Shown here piece after piece: positions 3,992 to 24,746 of a stretch of 35,931 bases of DNA. Below the pieces are notes generated by a model. It was not told where the DNA came from and did no database searches. It saw only the letters and a program-made list of their open reading frames with translations. Both the position numbers and the translations under genes were made by a program. This DNA comes from an uncultured Candidatus Peribacteria bacterium (GTDB lineage: Bacteria; Patescibacteriota; Gracilibacteria; BD1-5; UBA2023). Each line of letters opens with the position of its first letter. The stretch's first letter is position 1. The stretch spans positions 5,696-41,626 of the forward strand of contig CAZRBF010000001.1 in assembly GCA_964598195.1 (NCBI GenBank). Direction: 5' to 3'.

Positions 3992-5200
3992 ATGAGTCCT
4001 CTCCATAGACCAAAAACACTACGTGAATCTGTTTCAGCAGTTATGAAGGCTACCTGAGTAAAGAAACTTACAAAATTTATGTGAGATAAGGTAGAAAGGC
4101 TTGTAGGTAGTATATCTCCAAAATCCGTGGCTCCAGTATTACAACCTGTGCTCGAGGTGGAACAAAGTGACCAAGAAATTCTTCAACCAGTTAATGTATT
4201 GCCAGAAGTGTCTCCCACTAATAAATCGGCAGAAGTTATACCGTTTAAACCCATTAAGCCGATCTTGGCGATCGACAATACGCTCAGAACCATTGATACC
4301 TCTGAAACTTTTATGGAAACAGTATTACAAAATGCAGCGTACGTTATTGCAGACAAACTCCGTACCGACGATACCATCAAAGATCTTGTAGAGAGTGTTC
4401 GTAAAGATTTTGTAAATATGATCCGAGAAATAGAATGAAGAACGAGTCTTTCAGAAAAAAAGAAACTTACACTCATCGGACCAAAGTGACTCAATATCAC
4501 TCTGTGTATTTCAAATGAGGCTATCGGTGAATATAAATACATAATAGGAAACCTGAAAAAAGATTGTAATGTAGTCTATGGTGTCAATGGGGTGAGCATA
4601 GATAAAGCAGATCCAGGCTGTTTTTGATACTCTTTTGTAGAAGATGGGATTCAGATGATCTTTGAACTCGATCCAGGAAAAAGCAGTTTTGATACACATG
4701 GAGAAAGTGCAAAAAAATATTTTAATTTATTGGAAGGAGGTTTTCCTTTGTTGTGATGAGCATTTCTTCAGTGAATACGAGAAATCAACAATGAGATCAG
4801 TGCGCTCTATACAGACTCTGATACGGGGTTACTGAATCACTTGGCCTACAAGAAAACAAAAGAAGCCTTAGAAAAAGAGTTAAAAATATCGTGAAAACAT
4901 TTTACTGAACATGCGATTGAAATACTACCAAACAATCTTGTCATGCACCTACTCGGGGACTATGGAAGAGAGGCTCTTATGAGAATGATAGCTGATACAG
5001 TAAAGCCCCTCGACCCAGATATGACTTTTGCATATAAACACGTGGACAGGAATATGGCGGTTATATTTATAGACAGAACCAACTCACCAGAAATTATAAA
5101 AAAGCTTTCCGAGATTACCGCGGCGATGTCTCGAAGGATTGAAGTAAAAAATGCTCAGGATCTGATAGTAAACGTCGAGCTTATAACCAAAAAACACTAA
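3992..5200 (+). CDS. hypothetical protein (402 aa) with a possible degenerate GGDEF-like C-terminal domain
   Basis: ATG 3992 and ORF fragments 4127..4438 and 4943..5200 are one frame joined by nine TGA codons, with no TAA/TAG in between; TAA at 5198-5200. The C-terminal region DSDTGLLNHLAYKK...LLGDYGREALMRMIADTVK...AVIFID loosely follows the GGDEF-domain pattern but lacks GG(D/E)EF. Confidence 0.7.
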
Positions 5201-5265: not shown

Positions 5266-5667
5266 TTAATGTTTCCACACATGAGTTGATGCTTGAGAGG
5301 TTTTTCATGAAGGTGGCAGGTCTTGTCATCCTTCTTTTGCTCGTTTGGCATTGATTTCCACGGAGGTAGGGAGATTTTCCATTACTTCTAAAGATGATAA
5401 ATATCTATCGTAGTCTGAGTCCTTAAGTGTTACATTTCTTTTATTTTTGATGGTCTTTGTAGGAATCATCAATCAACCTCCTTCCGCACGTTGAGCATTA
5501 ATTGCTACGGAAGTAGGGAGATCTTTTCTTGCTTTTTCATACTCTGTGAGTACATCATAATAGGACCGCACAGTACTAGCTACCACGTCCATTGCAGGAG
5601 TGTTTGTTTCACCTTGTTCAAGATAAGAGATTCTTGTACTCGATGGAACATTGTTTACATGAGGCAT
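5266..5667 (-). CDS. small hypothetical protein with an internal ~30-aa tandem repeat (weak HTH-like N-terminus)
   Basis: ORF 5473..5667(-) ends in TGA. The frame continues through TGA 5326-5328 and 5305-5307 to TAA 5266-5268. Repeat: YEKARKDLPTSVAINAQRAEGG(G) versus VMENLPTSVEINAKRAKEG(G). Alternative ATG at 5671-5673. Confidence 0.55.
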
Positions 5668-5780
5668 TCACATAAGTTGGTAGATTATAGATTAAATCGT
5701 CGGAGATAGTGTATCTGATTATTGAAAATTTGCAAAAGATTTTGTGTGATTTTTTTTGGATGTGTGTAAAGATAAAAATT

Positions 5781-5836
5781 TGCTTTTTTTGTAAAAAACC
5801 ATATATTGCAGTTCTCGTTTTTTAGTGTTTATTATC
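5781..5836 (+). promoter_or_regulatory. promoter-like element, copy 2 of the ~55-nt repeat
   Basis: tgctttttttgtaaaaaaccatatattgcagttctcgttttttagtgtttattat. -35 TTGCAG at 5806-5811, 18-nt spacer, -10 TATTAT at 5830-5835. Followed by SD-like gaaaggggga and ATG 5865. Confidence 0.45.
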
Positions 5837-5864
5837 AACAAATTTTTGATGAAAGGGGGACTAA

Positions 5865-6140
5865 ATGTCTAATAATGAGAAGTCTGAGGTGTCTCGTGTA
5901 CCATGGTATGCCGAGATACTCATGCTCTGGTTTCTGATAGAAGTGTTCTACTTTAGCTTTAATAAGGCTCGAGAGTTCCGCGAGGTCTTGGTAGAGAATG
6001 GACAAACAGATTTATTGATCTGGGGGTTCGGTTTCTATTTCGTATTTCGGTCGTGTGTATTTGCTTACATGTTCGTTCTCGGGCAGTGCAAGGAGTATAT
6101 TTCTAGAAAGGAGCGCGATAGTGTTAACCAAAACAAATAA
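5865..6140 (+). CDS. small 2-TM membrane protein, first gene of the polysaccharide-synthase operon
   Basis: 91-aa ORF preceded by an AAAGGGGGA SD, ending TAA. Two hydrophobic helices (VPWYAEILMLWFLIEVFYFSF, LLIWGFGFYFVFRSCVFAYMFVL). Overlaps the next gene by 20 nt. Confidence 0.6.
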   Translation: MSNNEKSEVSRVPWYAEILMLWFLIEVFYFSFNKAREFREVLVENGQTDLLIWGFGFYFVFRSCVFAYMFVLGQCKEYISRKERDSVNQNK

Positions 6141-7479
6141 CGAATTTAGCCATTTAGTTGTGGCAATGTTTCTCCATAGCATTGACCCTGATGTATCACG
6201 CATTACCATCGCGTCTCATCTGGAAGCTTTGCTTGCTTTTACGAAAGATGGTGCTACGGCAACATTTGTCATACTCGCGACTAATGAGTCCAAAGAAGGG
6301 GGACAATTCTGGCTTGATGTGAAAACTACTCAGGAAATCGTTGGTGAGTACTCGAGTGACAGAATCGAGGTCATCATCATTCCTCAGGTCAATAAGAAGC
6401 GGGGTGCATACAAGCAACTTTTTGATGTTATTCCATCTGCGAGAAATGTGTCATACTATACACCAGAGCAAATAGTGTTTTGGTTCGTAGATGGCGATTC
6501 AGAAATACCCAAAGAACTGCGTCATTGTTTTTTTGTGGATGTGGCCAGGTCACTCTCTGTCGAAAACAAGATAGGGGGAGTCACGGTTCATAATAAGGTG
6601 AAGGTCTATTCGAACAGTCCTTGGGTCATAGCACTCATGGCATACACAAAAGGTCCAGCAAGGAGTTTTGTTATGCAGGCAAGTCCCAATGTCTTGACTG
6701 GTCGTGGTTCCATGATAATCGGGACTATTGCACTCGATAGGGAATTTCAAAAGCTCGTAGCGGAAGATCTCATTAATCTTACTGGTTTCCTCATTCCTAA
6801 AAAGGAATTTTATTCAGATACTGGGGATGATAAGAGTACATATTATTTCGTACTTATGAAAGGATGGAATGTTCGATATAATCCAGATCTCTACGTAGTT
6901 TGTCATGAAAAGATGAAATGGTTCATCGAGAAGCTCCCAAATATCTGGTCATTTCAACATCCGTCACTTGCTGTACGGTACTGTCGAAATAACCTGAACA
7001 ATGTTCAGAGGCTCCTCAGACTTGGGATGGGAAAATTGGGTTTTACTCGATATATGATGAATTGGGCAGATCGTCACCTGTTCTGGACTCCACTTATAGG
7101 TCCGATATCCACTGCTTTTCTTATGAATGCCTGGGGGTTTGATTATCTCTATGTGTATATAAGTTGGATAGTGGCCACTCGTTCTCTCGCGACATTTGTT
7201 GTCTGTATGGCAACCAAGGAAAGATGGTCCCCATTCTATCCTGTCATATTGATCTACATACAAAATGTTCTATCACTGGTAAAGCTTTGGGCTTTGGTTT
7301 CGGCCAGATCCTTTTGGACGCGTCAGGATAAAAAGATGGTAAATCCAGAAGCTCCAAAAGAGATCTCGGCTTTTATTATCCTTGCAACTATGATCGTCAT
7401 GTTTATAGGTATAAAAACTGGTGTTATATGGGTGCCTGGCTTCCAAGAACTGGTGGTCATAGTTAAGTCATTAATTTAA
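6121..7479 (+). CDS. processive family-2 glycosyltransferase (hyaluronan/chitin/alginate-synthase-like) with C-terminal TM helices
   Basis: GTG 6121 lies 7 nt after AAAGGAG. GT2-type motifs: VVAMFLHSID, KKRGAYK, FVDGDSEIP (DxD), TGDDKSTYY (compare GDDR/TED acceptor motif), AVRYCRNN (Q/RxxRW-like). About 4 hydrophobic helices in the last 130 aa. TAA at 7477-7479. No TGA codons. Confidence 0.7.
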   Translation: MLTKTNNEFSHLVVAMFLHSIDPDVSRITIASHLEALLAFTKDGATATFVILATNESKEGGQFWLDVKTTQEIVGEYSSDRIEVIIIPQVNKKRGAYKQLFDVIPSARNVSYYTPEQIVFWFVDGDSEIPKELRHCFFVDVARSLSVENKIGGVTVHNKVKVYSNSPWVIALMAYTKGPARSFVMQASPNVLTGRGSMIIGTIALDREFQKLVAEDLINLTGFLIPKKEFYSDTGDDKSTYYFVLMKGWNVRYNPDLYVVCHEKMKWFIEKLPNIWSFQHPSLAVRYCRNNLNNVQRLLRLGMGKLGFTRYMMNWADRHLFWTPLIGPISTAFLMNAWGFDYLYVYISWIVATRSLATFVVCMATKERWSPFYPVILIYIQNVLSLVKLWALVSARSFWTRQDKKMVNPEAPKEISAFIILATMIVMFIGIKTGVIWVPGFQELVVIVKSLI

Positions 7480-7495
7480 AAGAAAGAAGGTCAAA

Positions 7496-8938
7496 ATGAG
7501 CGGTAATATTTCTCTACCAGAACCCTCGGAAGGTCAGAAGATACGAGGAGCCAAGATTTCTTGGGTAAGTGTATTCCTGGTCGACAAGAACGGGAATGTT
7601 GGCAAAGAACTAAAAGTCGTCTGGCTTGCCGAAACTGGAACGGGTCTTGGACTGTATAACGCTTCTGAAGATACGTTAAACGTATGGATAGAGTTTTATA
7701 TCCCCGATTGTGACACAAAATATTGGGGATACCAGACACAAATCGCGTTCACAAAACGCGATAAAGACGATGAAAAATGTATGGTTTTCCATATCATTGG
7801 TAACCGTCCCACTCTTGACTTTGGTACATTGCTCCGGCTCAAGATCAAAAATCAAGGGAAACAACTCAGTATACAGGAAATACTGGAAAAAAACGGTCTG
7901 AAAGAATCATCTCATACTCCCAAGAAAAAAAGAAAGGAACCATTTAGATTTACCTCCCTCCATACCAGCATGATTGTGTTGGCTTTGCTTGGTGGTGTAA
8001 CCTATATCCACTATGGAATCCTGGACCATGTGGAAACAGGCACGGTTGCAACGCGTATCGTCACACAGGAGATTCCTTTGACTAAGGGATTGGTTGAGGA
8101 TATCTTGGAGCAAGGAAGCGAGGTCAGGAAAGGGGGAGTACTTGCAAGAGTAGTCGACCCGAACTTGACTGGCAACCTTGGATTGCTCGAGGATAAACGA
8201 GATGAGGCCATAAAAAGAGAGCAAATCCTTCGCAATCAAATTGAAGCACAATCTGTCGATCTGCAGAACAAAAAAGCTATGCTCGAAGAGTCCCGTGCAT
8301 ATCTCCAAAAACGGAAAGATCTTGAGAAGCAGGGATTTATATCGAGTAGTTTGATTCTGTTGGATAAACAAAAAGTTCTCGCTGAAGAGTCTGGGATTGC
8401 GACCATAAGTACGCAAATTCAACAAGCAAAAGTAGAGCTACAAACTCTCCTAAATACTTGGGGCCCAAATTTCACGAAATTACAAAAACAAAAAGGAGAA
8501 CTACAAAAACAAACCAAGGGGTCAACATATCTCGCCAAGTGCGATTGCTATGTCTATTCCGTTGCGTCGGATGTACGGGCGATAACTTTTCAACTCATAC
8601 CAAAAGATCATTTTTATATTGAGGCTGCTCTTCCAAAAGATACAGTGGCACACATGAAAGATGGACAGGTGGTCTGGTTTACACTTCCAGGAAGTAGTAC
8701 TTACAAGAAAGGGGTGTACAAAATAACCGAACTACAAAGAAAAGATCGCATGGGTTTGAGTGGTGAAATATTCGCTGCCACTAAAATGAGCATTATCGTA
8801 ATAAAACCCGATGAACCTATATCGGGCGGAGTTGAGATAATCGGAAAACCCGTTGCACTCATGCTGCACACATCAAGTGTATCAGCAACTATAGAACGTA
8901 TCAAGATTTACTTTACAGCGAATTTTTGAACGTTATAA
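7496..8938 (+). CDS. membrane-fusion (HlyD-family) adaptor with a ~165-aa cytoplasmic N-terminal beta-rich domain and one TM helix (Alg44-like architecture)
   Basis: ATG 7496 after GAAGG. KKKRKEPFRF followed by TM SMIVLALLGGVTYIHYGIL. Lipoyl-like GLVEDILEQGSEVRKGGVLARVVDP, a long coiled coil, then a beta-barrel segment YLAKCDCYVYSV...FYIEAALPKDTVAHMKDGQVVWF. The standard-code stop TGA 8927-8929 is read as Gly under code 25, and the gene ends 3 codons later at TAA 8936-8938. Confidence 0.8.
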
Positions 8939-8939
8939 T

Positions 8940-8988
8940 GTGCCCATCTCGGGCACCAAAAAGACCAAGCTCCGCTTGGTCTTTTTTT
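8940..8988 (+). terminator. tandem hairpin rho-independent terminator of the synthase operon
   Basis: gtgccc-atctc-gggcac (8940-8956), then agaccaagc-tcc-gcttggtct (8962-8982) followed by a T7 run. Confidence 0.8.
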
Positions 8989-9000
8989 CGCTCGAAAAAA

Positions 9001-9039
9001 TCCCTCGGACATTGCCTGGTAGGCAAGTGGTCCGAGGGA
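9001..9039 (-). terminator. long hairpin downstream of ugd (minus strand)
   Basis: tccctcggac ... gtccgaggga is a perfect 10-bp outer stem enclosing the ttgcct/aggcaa inner stem. It lies 9 nt beyond the ugd stop. Confidence 0.6.
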
Positions 9040-9047
9040 TTGATTGG

Positions 9048-10373
9048 TTATTGACGACCGATCGAGAAGTACAGAAATCCGTGCTTCCGAGGAGTGTTCA
9101 CGTCTTTGTAGATGTTTCGTCCATCAAAAATAACGGGTTTTTTCATGCGTTTCCTCATCTCATTCAAGTCCATGCCCCGAAATTCCTTCCATTCCGTGAC
9201 GATGATCAGACCATCAACATCTGCCAGAGCTCTCATTGCATCTCGTGCAAATGAAACTGCCGGTTCATCTTTGTAGATCTTCATTCCCTCTTTATAGGCA
9301 ACGGGATCATAGCAGACAGCCGTAGCACCACGCTTGACCAGTTCTCGGATAACACTGGTAGATGGAGCTTCGCGCATGTCGTCAGTGTTTGGCTTGAAAG
9401 CCAACCCCCAGATCGCAAACTTCATGCCAACGATATCACCAAAATGAGTAATCACCTTTTGAGCGAGAACCAACTTTTGGCGCTCATTGACTTCCTCCAC
9501 CGAGTCCAGAATTGGGAGATCTACTCCATATTCATGACCCGTGTGAATGAGGGCTTTGACGTCTTTTGGAAAACAAGACCCACCATAGCCAGGACCTGCA
9601 TGGAGAAAATCCATGCCAATACGTCTATCTGTTCCCATACCTTTTCTGATCGCTGTAATATCGGCACCAGTTTTTTCGCACAGACTTGTAAGCTCGTTTA
9701 TGAAGCTAATTTTGGTTGCGAGCATGGCATTTGCAGCATACTTTGTCAGTTCCGCACTCCGTATGTCCATACTCAGGACTTTGTCACGACCGAAGCCGAA
9801 AGAGTTGTATAACTCCGTCATAACCTCAAGAGCACGACTTGAATCAGTTCCGATAACCACTCGATCTGGTCGCATAAAGTCGTCGATAGCCGCCCCTTCC
9901 TTCAAAAACTCTGGGTTTGAAACGACATCAAAAGAAGCCGGTTCACCGCGTTGGGTAAAAAACGCCGATTCGATTGTTTTTCGAACTTTATCTGCTGTTC
10001 CAACTGGAACAGTCGACTTATCGACCACAACAGTATATCGATTCATATACCGTCCAATATTTTCTGCAGCCGATAAGACATGCGAAAGATCAGCTGACCC
10101 ATCTTCACCTGGCGGAGTGCCTACAGCGATGAATTGCACATCGCCATATTCAGCCGCCAACTGGATGTCTGTCGTAAAAGAAATTCGCCCAGCGATCATA
10201 TTTCTCTTGATGAAATCGTCAAGACCGGGCTCATGGATGGGTATTATTCCCTGGTTCAAGTCTTCGATCTTTTTGGCATCGAGATCCAAACACAAGACAT
10301 TATGTCCCACCTCCGCAAAACAAGCAGCCGTAACAAGTCCGACGTATCCGCTACCAATAACGGTAATTTTCAT
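9048..10373 (-). CDS. ugd: UDP-glucose 6-dehydrogenase
   Basis: Intact 441-aa ORF. N-terminus MKITVIGSGYVGLVTAACFAEVGHNVLCLDLDAKKIEDLNQGIIPIHEPGLDDFI, catalytic region GGSCFPKDV, C-terminal WKEFR. TAA stop. No TGA codons. Confidence 0.95.
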   Translation of the reverse strand: MKITVIGSGYVGLVTAACFAEVGHNVLCLDLDAKKIEDLNQGIIPIHEPGLDDFIKRNMIAGRISFTTDIQLAAEYGDVQFIAVGTPPGEDGSADLSHVLSAAENIGRYMNRYTVVVDKSTVPVGTADKVRKTIESAFFTQRGEPASFDVVSNPEFLKEGAAIDDFMRPDRVVIGTDSSRALEVMTELYNSFGFGRDKVLSMDIRSAELTKYAANAMLATKISFINELTSLCEKTGADITAIRKGMGTDRRIGMDFLHAGPGYGGSCFPKDVKALIHTGHEYGVDLPILDSVEEVNERQKLVLAQKVITHFGDIVGMKFAIWGLAFKPNTDDMREAPSTSVIRELVKRGATAVCYDPVAYKEGMKIYKDEPAVSFARDAMRALADVDGLIIVTEWKEFRGMDLNEMRKRMKKPVIFDGRNIYKDVNTPRKHGFLYFSIGRQ

Positions 10374-10554
10374 AAAAAACCTTTCTTTTTTGATGGATGT
10401 AAATGAACAAGAACCCTCGAATAGTATGGAATTTCTATAAAAGTCAAGTGGGAAACAACTTGCTCACCAAACGGCACCATATCAAGGGGCAAAAAATCTC
10501 CAAAAATCTTTTGCTTATTTTCAGAATGGATTAGAATAGACAATAGATATTTAT

Positions 10555-11043: not shown

Positions 11044-12051
11044 TTATTGAGGAGTAAGAACAACATTATTAAAGTTTACATTCGTATTAACAGGTGTTGC
11101 CCAGGTGGCGTCATTTCATCCGAAGAAATTGGAGAATATTACTTTAGTTATATGAGTGGTGTCAGCTTTTCGGAAGGTCACCGCACTGTCGCGAAATACT
11201 TCTTTGTCATCGACATATATAACGATGACCCCGTCATTTACTCCAGGAGTATTGAGCTTGATTGTCTGGCTTACTTTATAGTACTTTCCAGTAGTGAATC
11301 GGAATGATCAACGCCCAAAGCTCTGACCGTATGCTTCTGTCTTGGTTGGAACATATCCGTATACTTCTATATCACCGTTGGTTCTCCACATGAATCGAGT
11401 AGAAAAGTCATCTCCAACGGGTGCTCATCCAGTTGGACAGGTTCCTGTACAGAATCCAAATCCAAACTTTCCACCCTTGTTGAACTTGAAGTTCTTATCA
11501 AACATGACATTAAATGAAATGTTTGCAGAATCAAGGGTTTTTCCTATGCTATAGATGAATCCTCCTCCACCAAGAATAGGACTATTTTCAGGACTATAGC
11601 TTCATGCTGGGAAGAATACTTTTATCCCACCAGAGCTCGTAAGGCTCATGTTTTCTTTTCCCCAAACGCGCTCATAACCAGCAGGAGTTGGTTTATCGAG
11701 AGCAGAGGTGAAAGAAAGGGTTTCTGAAGTATTTGTAGCTCAGAGAACGACTGCTGGAGCAGGGGACTGGGGAACTGTTTTTGAAGATTTTTTCTTGTTG
11801 GCTTTTTTGGTTGAAACAGCAGTTGCTAATGGAGCCTCTTTTTTATTCTTTATCTTATGAGACTTTTCAGCATATGTGATATCAATTTTTCATGAATTCA
11901 GTGTATCTGCTTTTGATGAAGAGGCAAAACAAGAAGTCAGCAGAATGGCTGCCACAGTAAATGAGACCCCTACGACGAGGAATCGTGATAGGGTATTTTT
12001 CTTTGCATGAGATATATTCTCAGGTGATCCTGATAGTTTGGTTGTGTTCAT
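11044..12051 (-). CDS. lipoprotein with polysaccharide-lyase-fold domain (Pfam Polysacc_lyase / PL14-20-like pattern)
   Basis: Hand translation of the minus strand with TGA=Gly gives 335 aa. Signal/lipobox LVVGVSFTVAAILLTSC, a Lys/Ser-rich linker, then FKFNKGGKFGFGFCTG...STRFMWRTNGDIEVYGYVP...YYKVSQTIKLNTPGVNDGVIVIYVDDKEVF...ITKVIFSNFFG(G)NDATWA. TAA at 11044-11046. Six TGA codons. Confidence 0.55.
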
Positions 12052-12081: not shown

Positions 12082-12909
12082 CTAATTTATGTCATACGGT
12101 GCACCTTTGAGATTTACTGTATCGATTCGGTAATTATCTCCGGTATAACTTGGTCCCCATCTCTTGATGAGATGTGGTGTCTCGTCAGCATTGATATGAA
12201 CAGTATTAGATTGACTCGTGCTCCATGTCGGACTTACTTCTATACTATCAGAATTAATTTTTGTTACCGTGAAGAGACCCCCGGTACTCGTAAACTCTAC
12301 AACGTCTTTTACTCTAAATCCTGTCTCTATTGCGAGCTTTCCACTGAAGGTAAAGACGTTACTTCCACTATTGATAACCCCCGCATAATTATTGGATCAT
12401 AATCTTGGGACATATGTTCCATCTATCAATGACTTCGGACTTCAGCCATTTTCTATGGTTGCAGCCAGTTCATAGTAAGAGCCATTATAATACGTAACTC
12501 CTATCTTGTACGCTGTAGTTGTTTTTGTAGGATCGGAGAAGTTTTCTTGTTTGAGTCAGAGTACATTGTAGTTGACATCACCACCGACATAAGTTCCAGA
12601 GAGTGCCCCATATCACTCTATCCCAGAGAGCCGTATACGACTTCCATTTGCACCAACTGTTGGTCCAGTATTAGTGTGTGTTATAGTGGATCCTGTGCCA
12701 AGTACAAATATATTAACAGGAGACCCTTTGATTATAGAGAGATCTATCGCCTGTTGTATATTTCAGAGATCTGAACTCCGTCGTGAATCTCGGGCATCTG
12801 CGGCCATTCCTTGAAAAGAGAGAAAAGAGACAGTTCCAAGAATCACCAAAATTGTGATGACCACGATTAGTTCCACAAGAGTAAATCCTTTTTGATTTGT
12901 TTGTTTCAT
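12082..12909 (-). CDS. type IV pilin-like protein (prepilin-type N-terminal cleavage/methylation domain)
   Basis: ATG at 12907-12909 (minus). MKQTNQKGFTLVELIVVITILVILGTVSFLSF is the classical G/FTLVE class III signal. The 275-aa frame is joined by five TGA codons and ends at TAG 12082-12084. It lies 30 nt upstream of the lyase-like gene. Confidence 0.8.
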
Positions 12910-13212
12910 AGGCAGGAAGACATGAATTAAAATTGCCACTCATTTTTCTGTGTAAAAAGGAGATGGCTGATTAAAAGTTAACTCGAAATAAATATTTTCG
13001 GTTGAGATCGATTGAGTGTTACACTATACTCAAATATTTTAGTAAATCAAGTACATTTCAAATTTTGATTCTATTGTCCCGTTTCAAATCCGACCAACAG
13101 TTGTGGGATCTAGAAAATCATAAAATTTTTATGTCCTACTGAATAAAAACTTGATTAAATATGAATAATCATTATAAGCTATAGAATATATTACCTAGTT
13201 ACATTATTTACA

Positions 13213-23636: not shown

Positions 23637-24746
23637 ATGGCAGATACACAAGTAAAAACACAGGATCCAGCAACTCAGGCTGCGGTTACAGAAATGAAGA
23701 TTATGACTCTCGGTGCTCTTGAACGAGCCGAAGTAGAGGCAACTTTTGCTGAGGCAAAAGACTTTCGATCCATCGGAGAAAAGATTACTGCTCCACTCGA
23801 TAGTATTATCTCCGAAACTGCGAAGATCATCGACAAGGATCCGATAATGAATGTAAATGAGGAACTCCAAACCATGAATACCTCCGTTCAGGCAGTGTAC
23901 AAGGAGATTATCGACAATGACGGAACTATTATGAAGATTGCGAAATCTATTCCACTCATCAGCGGGCTCGCAAAAACACTCGATGCTAAGTGGGACGAGG
24001 CAAGTTTCAATGTAAAATCACTCGAAGGGAAAATCGGAGTTATTTTCTCCGGATTTGACCAAGCATATACGAGTCTGAATACCTCGATCGATATGCAAAA
24101 ATCCTTTCTCGATGGAATCGAAGCCAATATCGGCAAGGTCGTTGCTTACAAGGAATTTCTCGCTGAAAAGATTCTGGAGTTCAAATCAAAAGGAGAATTG
24201 GCAACCAGCGAAGACGAGAAGATGAAATATGATATGTTCCTCCGAAATGTGGAATTCTTTCAGTCCAACCTCGTAGTCCTCATCGGAAACCTCGAGCTTG
24301 CTCGAAAACGTCTTCTGATTCGACTTGATAGTGCCGCAAAGCTCTCTCTTGCGATGAATTCGTCACGACCCATATTCAAAACTCTCCTCTCTACTGCCCT
24401 CATTGAAACCTCTTCACAGAAAGCTCTCGAGGCAAGTATTAAGGCCATAGGAGTTATGGGTGAAACCATCGACAAGATGTCCTCAGGACTCACTGACAAG
24501 GCGATCGAGTCCAGTCGTCGAGCCGAAGAGATGTCTTCCAAGCCGGTTCTCTCGACGTCCGTATTCATCGAAAATGTCACCAAGCTCAAGAATCACTTCG
24601 AGGAAATCGATGCATACCGAGCTCAGGTGAAAATCGAAGCTGACAAAGAGAAAACTCTTTTTGCTGAAGCTAAGACCAAACTTGACAACATCAAGACTAT
24701 CTCCAAGAAAAATCAGGAAGAACTTGCAGAACAACTTTCACAGTAA
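23637..24746 (+). CDS. TelA-family (toxic anion resistance / YaaN-YceH-like) protein
   Basis: 369-aa all-helical ORF. Its length and helix pattern fit TelA (for example LRNVEFFQSNLVVLIGNLELARKRLLIRLDSAAKL..., IETSSQKALEASIKAIGVMGETIDKMSSGLTDKAIESSRRAEE, VLSTSVFIENVTKLKNHFEEIDAYRAQ). TAA stop. No TGA codons. Confidence 0.65.
   Translation: MADTQVKTQDPATQAAVTEMKIMTLGALERAEVEATFAEAKDFRSIGEKITAPLDSIISETAKIIDKDPIMNVNEELQTMNTSVQAVYKEIIDNDGTIMKIAKSIPLISGLAKTLDAKWDEASFNVKSLEGKIGVIFSGFDQAYTSLNTSIDMQKSFLDGIEANIGKVVAYKEFLAEKILEFKSKGELATSEDEKMKYDMFLRNVEFFQSNLVVLIGNLELARKRLLIRLDSAAKLSLAMNSSRPIFKTLLSTALIETSSQKALEASIKAIGVMGETIDKMSSGLTDKAIESSRRAEEMSSKPVLSTSVFIENVTKLKNHFEEIDAYRAQVKIEADKEKTLFAEAKTKLDNIKTISKKNQEELAEQLSQ

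Follow-up and report, generated by a model that had tools for sequence, protein, structure and literature searches.

A polysaccharide-synthesis cassette free of internal TGA codons in bacteria that read TGA as glycine

Introduction

The polysaccharide-synthesis genes considered here occupy positions 5865–10373 of a 35,931-nucleotide stretch of DNA (the window) from an uncultured Candidatus Peribacteria bacterium that uses genetic code 25, in which TGA is decoded as glycine, and they resemble several described systems, each in part. In the Alg8-Alg44 alginate system of Pseudomonas and Azotobacter, a membrane synthase of glycosyltransferase family 2 (GT2) acts with a partner protein; the cassette GT2 has Alg8/mannuronan synthase as its only named distant homologues, and the protein encoded next to it is built like Alg44, with an N-domain in the cytoplasm, a single membrane helix and a membrane-fusion domain. 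Just as AlgD and AlgL go with Alg8-Alg44, an AlgD/Ugd-family sugar-nucleotide 6-dehydrogenase and a polyuronate lyase lie in the cassette locus. The differences are considerable: the GT2 is only 22–30% identical to Alg8, no PilZ signature was found in the N-domain of its partner, the dehydrogenase belongs with the UDP-glucose enzymes and not with those for GDP-mannose, the lyase is of family PL14 and not PL5, no AlgK/E/G/X-type genes were seen at the cassette, and the host is a small-genome code-25 bacterium. Chloroviruses carry a polysaccharide gene set of HAS, UGDH and the PL14 lyase vAL-1, with which the locus shares, compared at the level of families, a GT2 polymer synthase, a UDP-glucose dehydrogenase and a PL14 lyase predicted to act on a glucuronate-containing polymer, although host and genome type differ.

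Two further systems bear on codon content. In the bldA/TTA regulon of Streptomyces, the member genes are marked out by one codon for which there is just one, dedicated tRNA, and this places a developmental or surface function under translational control. The cassette may be likened to it, by analogy only, as a group of genes told apart by whether they contain a codon with its own tRNA; the logic is inverted, in that the cassette set lacks the codon, and regulation of tRNA-Gly(UCA) is unsupported. Code-11-compatible phages of Gracilibacteria and Absconditabacteria have no in-frame TGA, and a TGA at the end of a gene is backed by a nearby TAA or TAG (mBio 2023, PMC10746230). The cassette genes likewise have no in-frame internal TGA in a code-25 host, and a backed gene-end TGA occurs in the window (with a TAA two codons on) and in the GT2 gene of locus L008, not in G008 or L007; here and below, G000 is the genome that holds the window, G008 and G026 are relatives, and L-numbers denote homologous loci on other contigs. 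Unlike the phages, the cassette is chromosomal and metabolic, is interleaved with TGA-rich genes and is conserved across deep host divergence, and no phage copy of it was found.

When a reassigned codon is used unevenly, the usual explanation is expression level or recent transfer. Here we describe a chromosomal operon that is TGA-free and Shine-Dalgarno-led through deep code-25 divergence while its immediate neighbours use TGA freely, a state that seems to be old and held by selection rather than a product of recent transfer or ordinary codon bias.

The Cassette Lacks Internal TGA Codons

A previous reading of the window, made from sequence alone (the sequence-only reading), had described a TGA-poor block of four genes whose sole TGA lies at 8927–8929. 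The counts bear out the block, with 1 TGA among 102 glycine codons, although the genes are really three, since the open reading frames at 5865–6140 and 6121–7479 are parts of one split GT2 gene. These two parts, on the plus strand, contain 0 TGA beside 4 GGN codons and 0 beside 23, respectively, the adaptor gene that follows (7496–8938, plus strand) contains 1 beside 36, and ugd (9048–10373, minus strand) contains 0 beside 38. By contrast, TGA provides 13–50% of the glycines in the neighbours of the block in the window, as in recG (6 TGA to 41 GGN), the gene at 3992–5200 (9 to 15) and the pilin gene at 5266–5673 (4 to 4). The hand counts made earlier for recG, for the 3992–5200 gene and for the lyase-like gene (6) were reproduced on recounting, the pilin gene having been credited with one TGA too many, 5 instead of 4.

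Against the genome-wide share of TGA among glycine codons in G000 (18.2%, 1012 genes), the probability of finding at most 1 TGA in 102 is 3e-8, so the depletion stands once glycine content is taken into account; at the rate of the ribosomal-protein genes (13 TGA among 243 glycine codons, or 5.3%) it is 0.026. A Fisher test of the block against its window neighbours gives 2.5e-10. TGA use in G000 falls as GC rises (rho −0.56) and is over-dispersed, with zero TGA in 43 of the 580 genes that have at least 15 glycines; the block, at a GC content of 0.415–0.46 against 0.38 for the window, is indeed more GC-rich, as had been judged by eye relative to the paralog array. A binomial generalized linear model on codon adaptation index (CAI), GC content at third codon positions (GC3) and GC predicts 14.5 TGA where 1 is observed, with an overdispersion of 2. 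The gene at 23637–24746, previously called TelA-family, is TGA-free as stated (0/14), which is not significant taken alone; its CAI lies at the 82nd percentile, and it has no Pfam match at E ≤ 0.001.

The comparative data cover 12 code-25 loci from about six deep lineages, and the TGA-free state is common to the homologues in all of them: internal TGA accounts for 0 of some 800 glycine codons in cassette genes (12/12 loci), against 3–83% of glycines in the neighbouring genes, with Fisher p values down to 1e-24. The contrast is stark at L008 (0/52 TGA per glycine codons in the cassette, 180/261 in neighbours) and L009 (0/59 and 54/65), and holds at L005 (0/96 and 52/358). Cassette GC3, computed on non-glycine codons, tracks that of the host from 0.18 to 0.58; GGA, one G-to-T change away from TGA, ranks first or second among cassette glycine codons; and conserved glycine columns use 2.6–3.5 different GGN codons per column, with 0 TGA in 285 codons. 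Because the genes have thus followed host composition, kept GGA abundant and turned over their GGN codons without ever arriving at an internal TGA, the absence of that codon is both conserved and non-neutral.

The contig of L008, at 26% GC and with TGA at 69% of its glycine codons, is bimodal in its TGA use, each gene having either 0% or 50–93%. Three more of its genes, at 646–1308, 1459–1809 and 6458–7486, are wholly TGA-free; they encode a NUDIX-like protein, a nucleoside 2-deoxyribosyltransferase-like protein and an unknown protein of 341 amino acids. A family of TGA-free NUDIX genes shared between G000 and L008 was considered and rejected, as the families differ.

Terminal TGAs

All four TGAs found in cassette genes are at 3′ ends. 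The one in the window (8927–8929, plus strand) is codon 478 of 480 in the adaptor gene and is followed by ACG, TTA and a TAA at 8936–8938. In the adaptor alignment, this column holds TGA in the window and G008, which count as one lineage, and in L007, while L005 and L010–L012 have GGN there, followed by 0–2 residues; the adaptor genes of L011 and L012 end in GGT-ACN-TTC-TAA, close to the TGA-ACG-TTA-TAA of the window. The G008 adaptor gene (L004, G008:C97) has its terminal TGA followed by a hairpin terminator and T-run, and its frame then continues for 310 codons without TAA or TAG, antisense to a convergent PL14 lyase gene; G008 lacks a Ugd at this position. At L007, the TGA in the same column is followed by 45 junk codons that run into the next gene. 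The fourth case is the GT2 gene of L008, whose end forms an ATGA overlap with the start codon of the adaptor gene and which meets a further stop codon 19 codons later. The terminal adaptor TGA had been taken for an ancestral stop codon. The alignment column does fit a fossil stop turned glycine, and it fits a real C-terminal glycine equally well; a test for such fossils in G000 revealed no genome-wide enrichment of TGA near 3′ ends.

Translation and Transcription Signals

Cassette genes also differ from their surroundings in how they begin. A Shine-Dalgarno match of at least 5 nt precedes 13 of 23 cassette genes and 11 of 110 neighbours (p 3e-6), even with the neighbours granted the best of five candidate starts, and the cassette homologues have the Shine-Dalgarno sequence AAAGGAGG 5–7 nt ahead of ATG. 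In G000, 91% of genes lack any Shine-Dalgarno-like match, all of the ribosomal-protein genes among them. At L008, Shine-Dalgarno-like sites occur only on its five TGA-free genes. Outside the cassette, the link between such sites and TGA-free genes is only marginal (p 0.046), being driven by L008 and weak in G000. Among native G000 genes, Shine-Dalgarno sequences are found at 2% of called starts and at 17% of internal control ATGs, and the regions upstream of the ribosomal-protein genes (operon C5:2775-11776) are pyrimidine- and AT-rich.

Upstream of the synthase operon, a putative sigma-70-type promoter (5780–5807, plus strand) comprises a -35 element TTGCTT (5780–5785), a 16-nt spacer and a -10 element TATATT (5802–5807), and it appears in register at 8 of 9 GT2 loci as TTGCTT, TTGACT or TTGATT followed by TATATT or TATAAT. 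The 5′ leader (5808–5864, plus strand) contains CTC with a T-run (5814–5823), a conserved tatcaacaaatttttgat (5833–5850) and a degenerate Shine-Dalgarno sequence AAAGGGGG (5852–5859); the conserved leader matches no Rfam family. Ugd seems to have a promoter of its own, TTGACT...TACTAT, with a Shine-Dalgarno GAAAGG upstream of the gene. The GT2 operon and the Ugd genes have a conserved layout in common: a TTGACT-like -35, 16–17 nt, a TATAAT-like -10, CTC with a T-run, a leader and a Shine-Dalgarno site. Between the convergent adaptor and ugd genes (8940–9042) lie hairpins formed by GTGCCC..GGGCAC, by AAAAAGACCAAGC-tcc-GCTTGGTCTTTTTTT, which is terminator-like on both strands, and by AATCCCTCGGAC..GTCCGAGGGATT; the same hairpin, with a T-run, comes after the adaptor TGA in G008.

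Probable Selection Against Internal TGA

Taken as a whole, the data are best explained by long-term purifying selection against internal TGA, maintained in old cassette genes, an explanation we regard as probable though by a modest measure. The block would be the synthesis half of a surface-polyuronate locus, in which a GT2 synthase and a co-polymerase are supplied with UDP-glucuronate by Ugd. Its genes would be written in ordinary bacterial grammar, that is, with no internal TGA, with Shine-Dalgarno starts and with their own sigma-70-type promoters, and they would have entered code-25 lineages long ago, Ugd from a proteobacterial-type source. Since then they would have diverged to 34–57% identity, drifted to the base composition of their hosts and turned over their GGN codons repeatedly, internal TGA never becoming fixed; TGA would be tolerated only at the very 3′ end, where little is lost by truncation or read-through. 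From this we infer that, in these particular genes, an internal TGA is strongly deleterious. Perhaps the likeliest cause is that they must be translated in a manner, or at a time, independent of tRNA-Gly(UCA), in which case the cassette would form a translation class apart from the bulk of host genes, in which Shine-Dalgarno sites are rare and TGA is used without restraint.

Several points weigh against this explanation. The reason just offered for selection against internal TGA is a guess. Gene-order shuffles in G000 give an equally TGA-poor run of three adjacent genes in 28% of cases, so clustering within the genome is not significant and was dropped as evidence, and it is on the comparison between loci that the finding chiefly rests. 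There, most loci are single metagenome contigs whose lineage is inferred from local gene content only. In the Shine-Dalgarno comparison, cassette starts came from a caller that favours ribosome-binding sites and neighbour starts were our own calls; moreover, the 3′ end of the G000 16S rRNA (C104, minus strand) reads ...GGACTATCTCCTT, with an anti-Shine-Dalgarno core of UCUCC and not CCUCC, so the efficacy of such sites here is uncertain. A CAI based on ribosomal proteins, on which we rely below, is maybe a poor proxy for expression in such small genomes. Finally, some copies may be decaying, given that the window GT2 is frameshifted and that the adaptor genes of G008 and L007 have no nearby TAA or TAG after their terminal TGA.

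Selection of this kind suggests either that recoded bacteria have a second, protected class of translation or that decoding UGA as glycine carries a cost not recognised so far. It also offers a concrete, testable way to ask how fully UGA has been reassigned and whether the supply of tRNA-Gly(UCA) is used, or attacked, as a control point. In practice, TGA-free genes in code-25 genomes do not reliably indicate recent transfer, and the three cassette genes should express unaltered in E. coli, whereas their lyase neighbours will not.

Alternative Explanations

One could suppose that the operon is simply very highly expressed and that TGA is a poor codon shunned in abundant proteins. TGA-free genes in G000 do mostly have high CAI (median 86th percentile), the ribosomal proteins use TGA at 5% against 18% overall, EF-G is TGA-free in L043, and the strong Shine-Dalgarno sites and promoters of the cassette could serve high output. 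However, high expression does not explain the cassette because its codon adaptation is low: the CAI of its three genes lies at the 12th, 4th and 17th percentiles in G000, and their raised GC3 is opposite to that of highly expressed genes. The cassette is also more strictly TGA-free (0/101 internal, p 0.004) than the ribosomal proteins, and more so than the translation GTPases of TGA-rich relatives, nearly all of which keep TGA, the GTP_EFTU domains of EF-Tu, EF-G and others containing 2–17 TGA per 190 residues in 23 of 25 cases. The exclusion is absolute over 12 loci and not graded, and native Ugds are TGA-rich. We therefore consider translational selection of the ordinary kind, which the sequence-only reading had offered as its alternative, unlikely.

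Compatibility with both codes might instead be imposed by lineage selection on a mobile, plug-and-play cassette, passed on perhaps through standard-code hosts or through code-11-compatible phages, such that only copies readable in every code survive. The Gracilibacteria phages without in-frame TGA and with backed TGA stops set a precedent (PMC10746230), and the TGA-ACG-TTA-TAA ending in the window is of the same form as phage gene ends. The cassette brings its own conserved promoter and Shine-Dalgarno site, its distribution is patchy and its alleles are hyper-divergent. Furthermore, a 33-nt imperfect inverted repeat (28/33), with arms at 5723–5755 (plus strand) and 10491–10523 (minus strand), encloses the TGA-free block, each arm lying just beyond a promoter. 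Allowing up to 7 substitutions, the 1.23-Mb assembly has no other copy of the arms; the repeat could be a shared operator or mark the two ends of a module. A carrier is nonetheless missing: the GT2 was not found in 2.9 million viral contigs, a JGI metagenome scan returned no match, and no standard-code carrier is known. Reading the flanks of the repeat disclosed no target-site duplication, and marks of mobility were likewise missing, with no tRNA in the window, no flanking direct repeats, no integrase in Pfam scans of the neighbours and no transposase. The contexts of the cassette are chromosomal, with housekeeping neighbours that differ between loci. As the lyase and pilin genes that would have been co-transferred are full of TGA, and GC3 amelioration implies long residence, we find this account distinctly doubtful.

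Recent or recurrent acquisition from standard-code donors, with too little time to gain TGA, is what the sequence-only reading had favoured. The GT2 is patchily distributed, G008 being the only one of 40 relatives to have it and a further 400 genomes of the class yielding none, and the cassette has low CAI and slightly raised GC3 in G000. RecG is 86–95% identical between G000 and G008, compared with only 53–64% for the cassette proteins (GT2 57–64%) and 54% for the lyase; the whole locus is hyper-divergent, as is often the case in capsule-type loci. The terminal TGAs and the ATGA start/stop overlap of L008 resemble standard-code punctuation, and other TGA-free, low-CAI genes of G000, such as an AcrB fragment and an MCP, are typical transfer candidates.

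The trees and searches tell against the word “recent”. The GT2 tree places all nine code-25 sequences in a single clade with support 100, separated by a very long branch from standard-code Alg8-like genes and internally diverged by 0.6–2.1 substitutions per site. The nearest GT2 relatives are 34–57% identical, and all are on contigs whose other genes are TGA-full; the next-best matches in GTDB species genomes are 22–29% identical and come from Rickettsiales, Micavibrio/Pseudobdellovibrionaceae, Enterovibrio and others. Among 15 billion proteins, no standard-code relative of GT2 or the membrane-fusion protein (MFP) above ~30% identity was found, and an exhaustive HMMER search with the GT2 (1.84 billion representatives) shows a gap in scores from 535 to 151 bits. 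The GT2/MFP pair, judged by its sequences, has no traceable donor, its origin being too deep to trace. The distant standard-code GT2 relatives (L047–L097) include predatory or obligately host-associated groups, namely Pseudobdellovibrionaceae, Micavibrio and Rickettsiales.

The history of Ugd can be read further. Its nearest relatives (67–71% identity) are TGA-free genes on code-25 contigs, followed by Betaproteobacteria at 61–63%, with no standard-code Ugd above 63% in searches of 5.8–15 billion proteins. The tree of Ugd proteins unites the TGA-free code-25 members in one clade (support 96) that is sister to Betaproteobacteria (support 99), and the native Gracilibacteria Ugds form a separate clade whose same-order members carry 8–32 TGA, which means that the protein family itself tolerates TGA. 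On sequence grounds, then, Ugd is an old xenologue of foreign, standard-code ancestry. Transfer from a standard-code donor thus stands for Ugd. Recency is not supported: GT2 and MFP make up a clade known only from code-25 contigs. With GC3 ameliorated to hosts that span 12% to 70% GC3, GGN codons saturated at conserved glycines and never replaced by TGA, and a conserved linkage to TGA-rich lyase and pilin genes, recent acquisition is already largely refuted, and we hold it to be improbable.

Least credible, and in our view very improbable, is an “opine-like” split between two codes, in which the synthesis genes would be meant for expression in a standard-code host or prey of the episymbiont, making polyuronate there, with the harvesting or binding lyases and pilins kept in the symbiont's TGA-rich code: the grammar (no internal TGA, canonical Shine-Dalgarno, sigma-70-type promoter, TGA or ATGA gene ends) can be cited for it, and the GC3 data are compatible because composition would still follow the symbiont genome that replicates the DNA, but neither transfer machinery nor border sequences nor host-borne copies came to light, and at L005 five TGA-rich genes lie between the Ugd and the synthase.

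Genes of the Locus

The Alg8-like synthase is encoded in the window by two pieces on the plus strand. The N-terminal segment (5865–6140, 91 amino acids) aligns with residues 1–90 of homologues that are single open reading frames of ~570 amino acids, was picked up as a separate match (P0240) in the HMMER search, and is hydrophobic, probably with two membrane helices; the catalytic and C-terminal membrane part (6121–7479) has 452 amino acids. The split maps to 6117–6127 (plus strand), where the window reads CGC GAT AGT GTT A ACC AAA ACA AAT and the G008 orthologue CGC AAT AAT GAC ACC AAA ACA AAT, which suggests a 1-nt insertion. The GT2 has a Glyco_tranf_2_3 match of 24 bits, under the 27-bit cut-off, and nothing was found for it in an NCBIfam search or a PDB sequence search; the closest named proteins are Alg8/mannuronan synthase, at 26–30% identity and E values of 1e-17 to 1e-24.

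The adaptor, an Alg44-like co-polymerase (7496–8938, plus strand), has an N-terminal beta domain, one membrane helix (residues 154–176) and an HlyD/EmrA-like membrane-fusion-protein domain, and it lies directly downstream of the GT2 in 9 of 9 loci. Its family profile matches EmrA (E 1e-4) and MacA. An AlphaFold2 model (mean confidence score pLDDT 79) predicts the helix at 154–176, a long helical hairpin and a beta-rich N-domain, and the best Foldseek matches of the model are EmrA, MacA and MexA (E 1e-13 to 1e-11). A PilZ domain, which binds cyclic di-GMP, has no Pfam match in the N-domain of any of 9 members, even at E 0.1.

Ugd, a UDP-glucose 6-dehydrogenase and apparent proteobacterial-type xenologue (9048–10373, minus strand), matches PF03721, PF00984 and PF03720 at 216, 131 and 112 bits, so that its N-terminal NAD-binding, central and C-terminal UDP-binding domains all exceed curated thresholds, and it is 61–63% identical to proteins named UDP-glucose dehydrogenase. 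Beyond it in the same conserved locus, on the minus strand, are a TGA-rich PL14 polysaccharide lyase gene (11044–12051, 6 TGA to 26 GGN) and a TGA-rich gene for a pilin-like protein with an N-terminal methylation motif (12082–12939, 5 TGA to 27 GGN), the latter a recurrent neighbour of the cassette. In G008, L005 and L007 as well, PL14 genes flank the cassette and are rich in TGA; across the conserved locus, lyase and pilin genes contain 6–11 TGA each. Production and trimming of a surface polymer that contains glucuronate is the probable role of the locus, glucuronate being suggested in place of mannuronate because the linked dehydrogenase is of the UDP-glucose type.

The Host Genome and Its Code

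The window corresponds to C1:5696-41626 of G000, an assembly of 1.23 Mb in 143 contigs with 38.7% GC and an estimated completeness of 83%. G000 is a Gracilibacteria-type genome in which TGA is decoded as glycine. Our own caller for open reading frames ends its 1012 genes in TAA or TAG only, a tRNA with anticodon UCA is on C86 and a tRNA-Gly(UCC) on C71, and nearly all relatives have one RF-1-domain gene each, G026 having a second, weak match. Together, the single RF-1-domain gene of the relatives and the tRNA(UCA) of G000 indicate that TGA is no ordinary stop here. RF2 reading TGA as stop was accordingly rejected; in G000 itself, which is 83% complete, no RF-1-domain gene was found. In-frame TGA is found in RecG across the whole order and is absent from most other families of the class.

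A few other TGA-free genes of G000 deserve mention. Another run of four adjacent ones (C17:4-4675, 0/105 glycine codons) includes a DEAD-box helicase. Those of low CAI comprise genes for an MscS, a NUDIX protein, a C-terminal fragment of AcrB (C48:8252-9451, GC3 0.57) and a dCache-HAMP-MCP chemoreceptor (C7:3507-5063); the last two, odd in a small-genome bacterium of the candidate phyla radiation, may be recent transfers or bin contamination. At the other extreme is a gene of 1133 amino acids (C5:20448-23849) with 96 GGN and 0 TGA, a GC3 of 0.17 and a CAI exceeded by only one other of the TGA-free genes listed, whose product is probably a very abundant surface protein.

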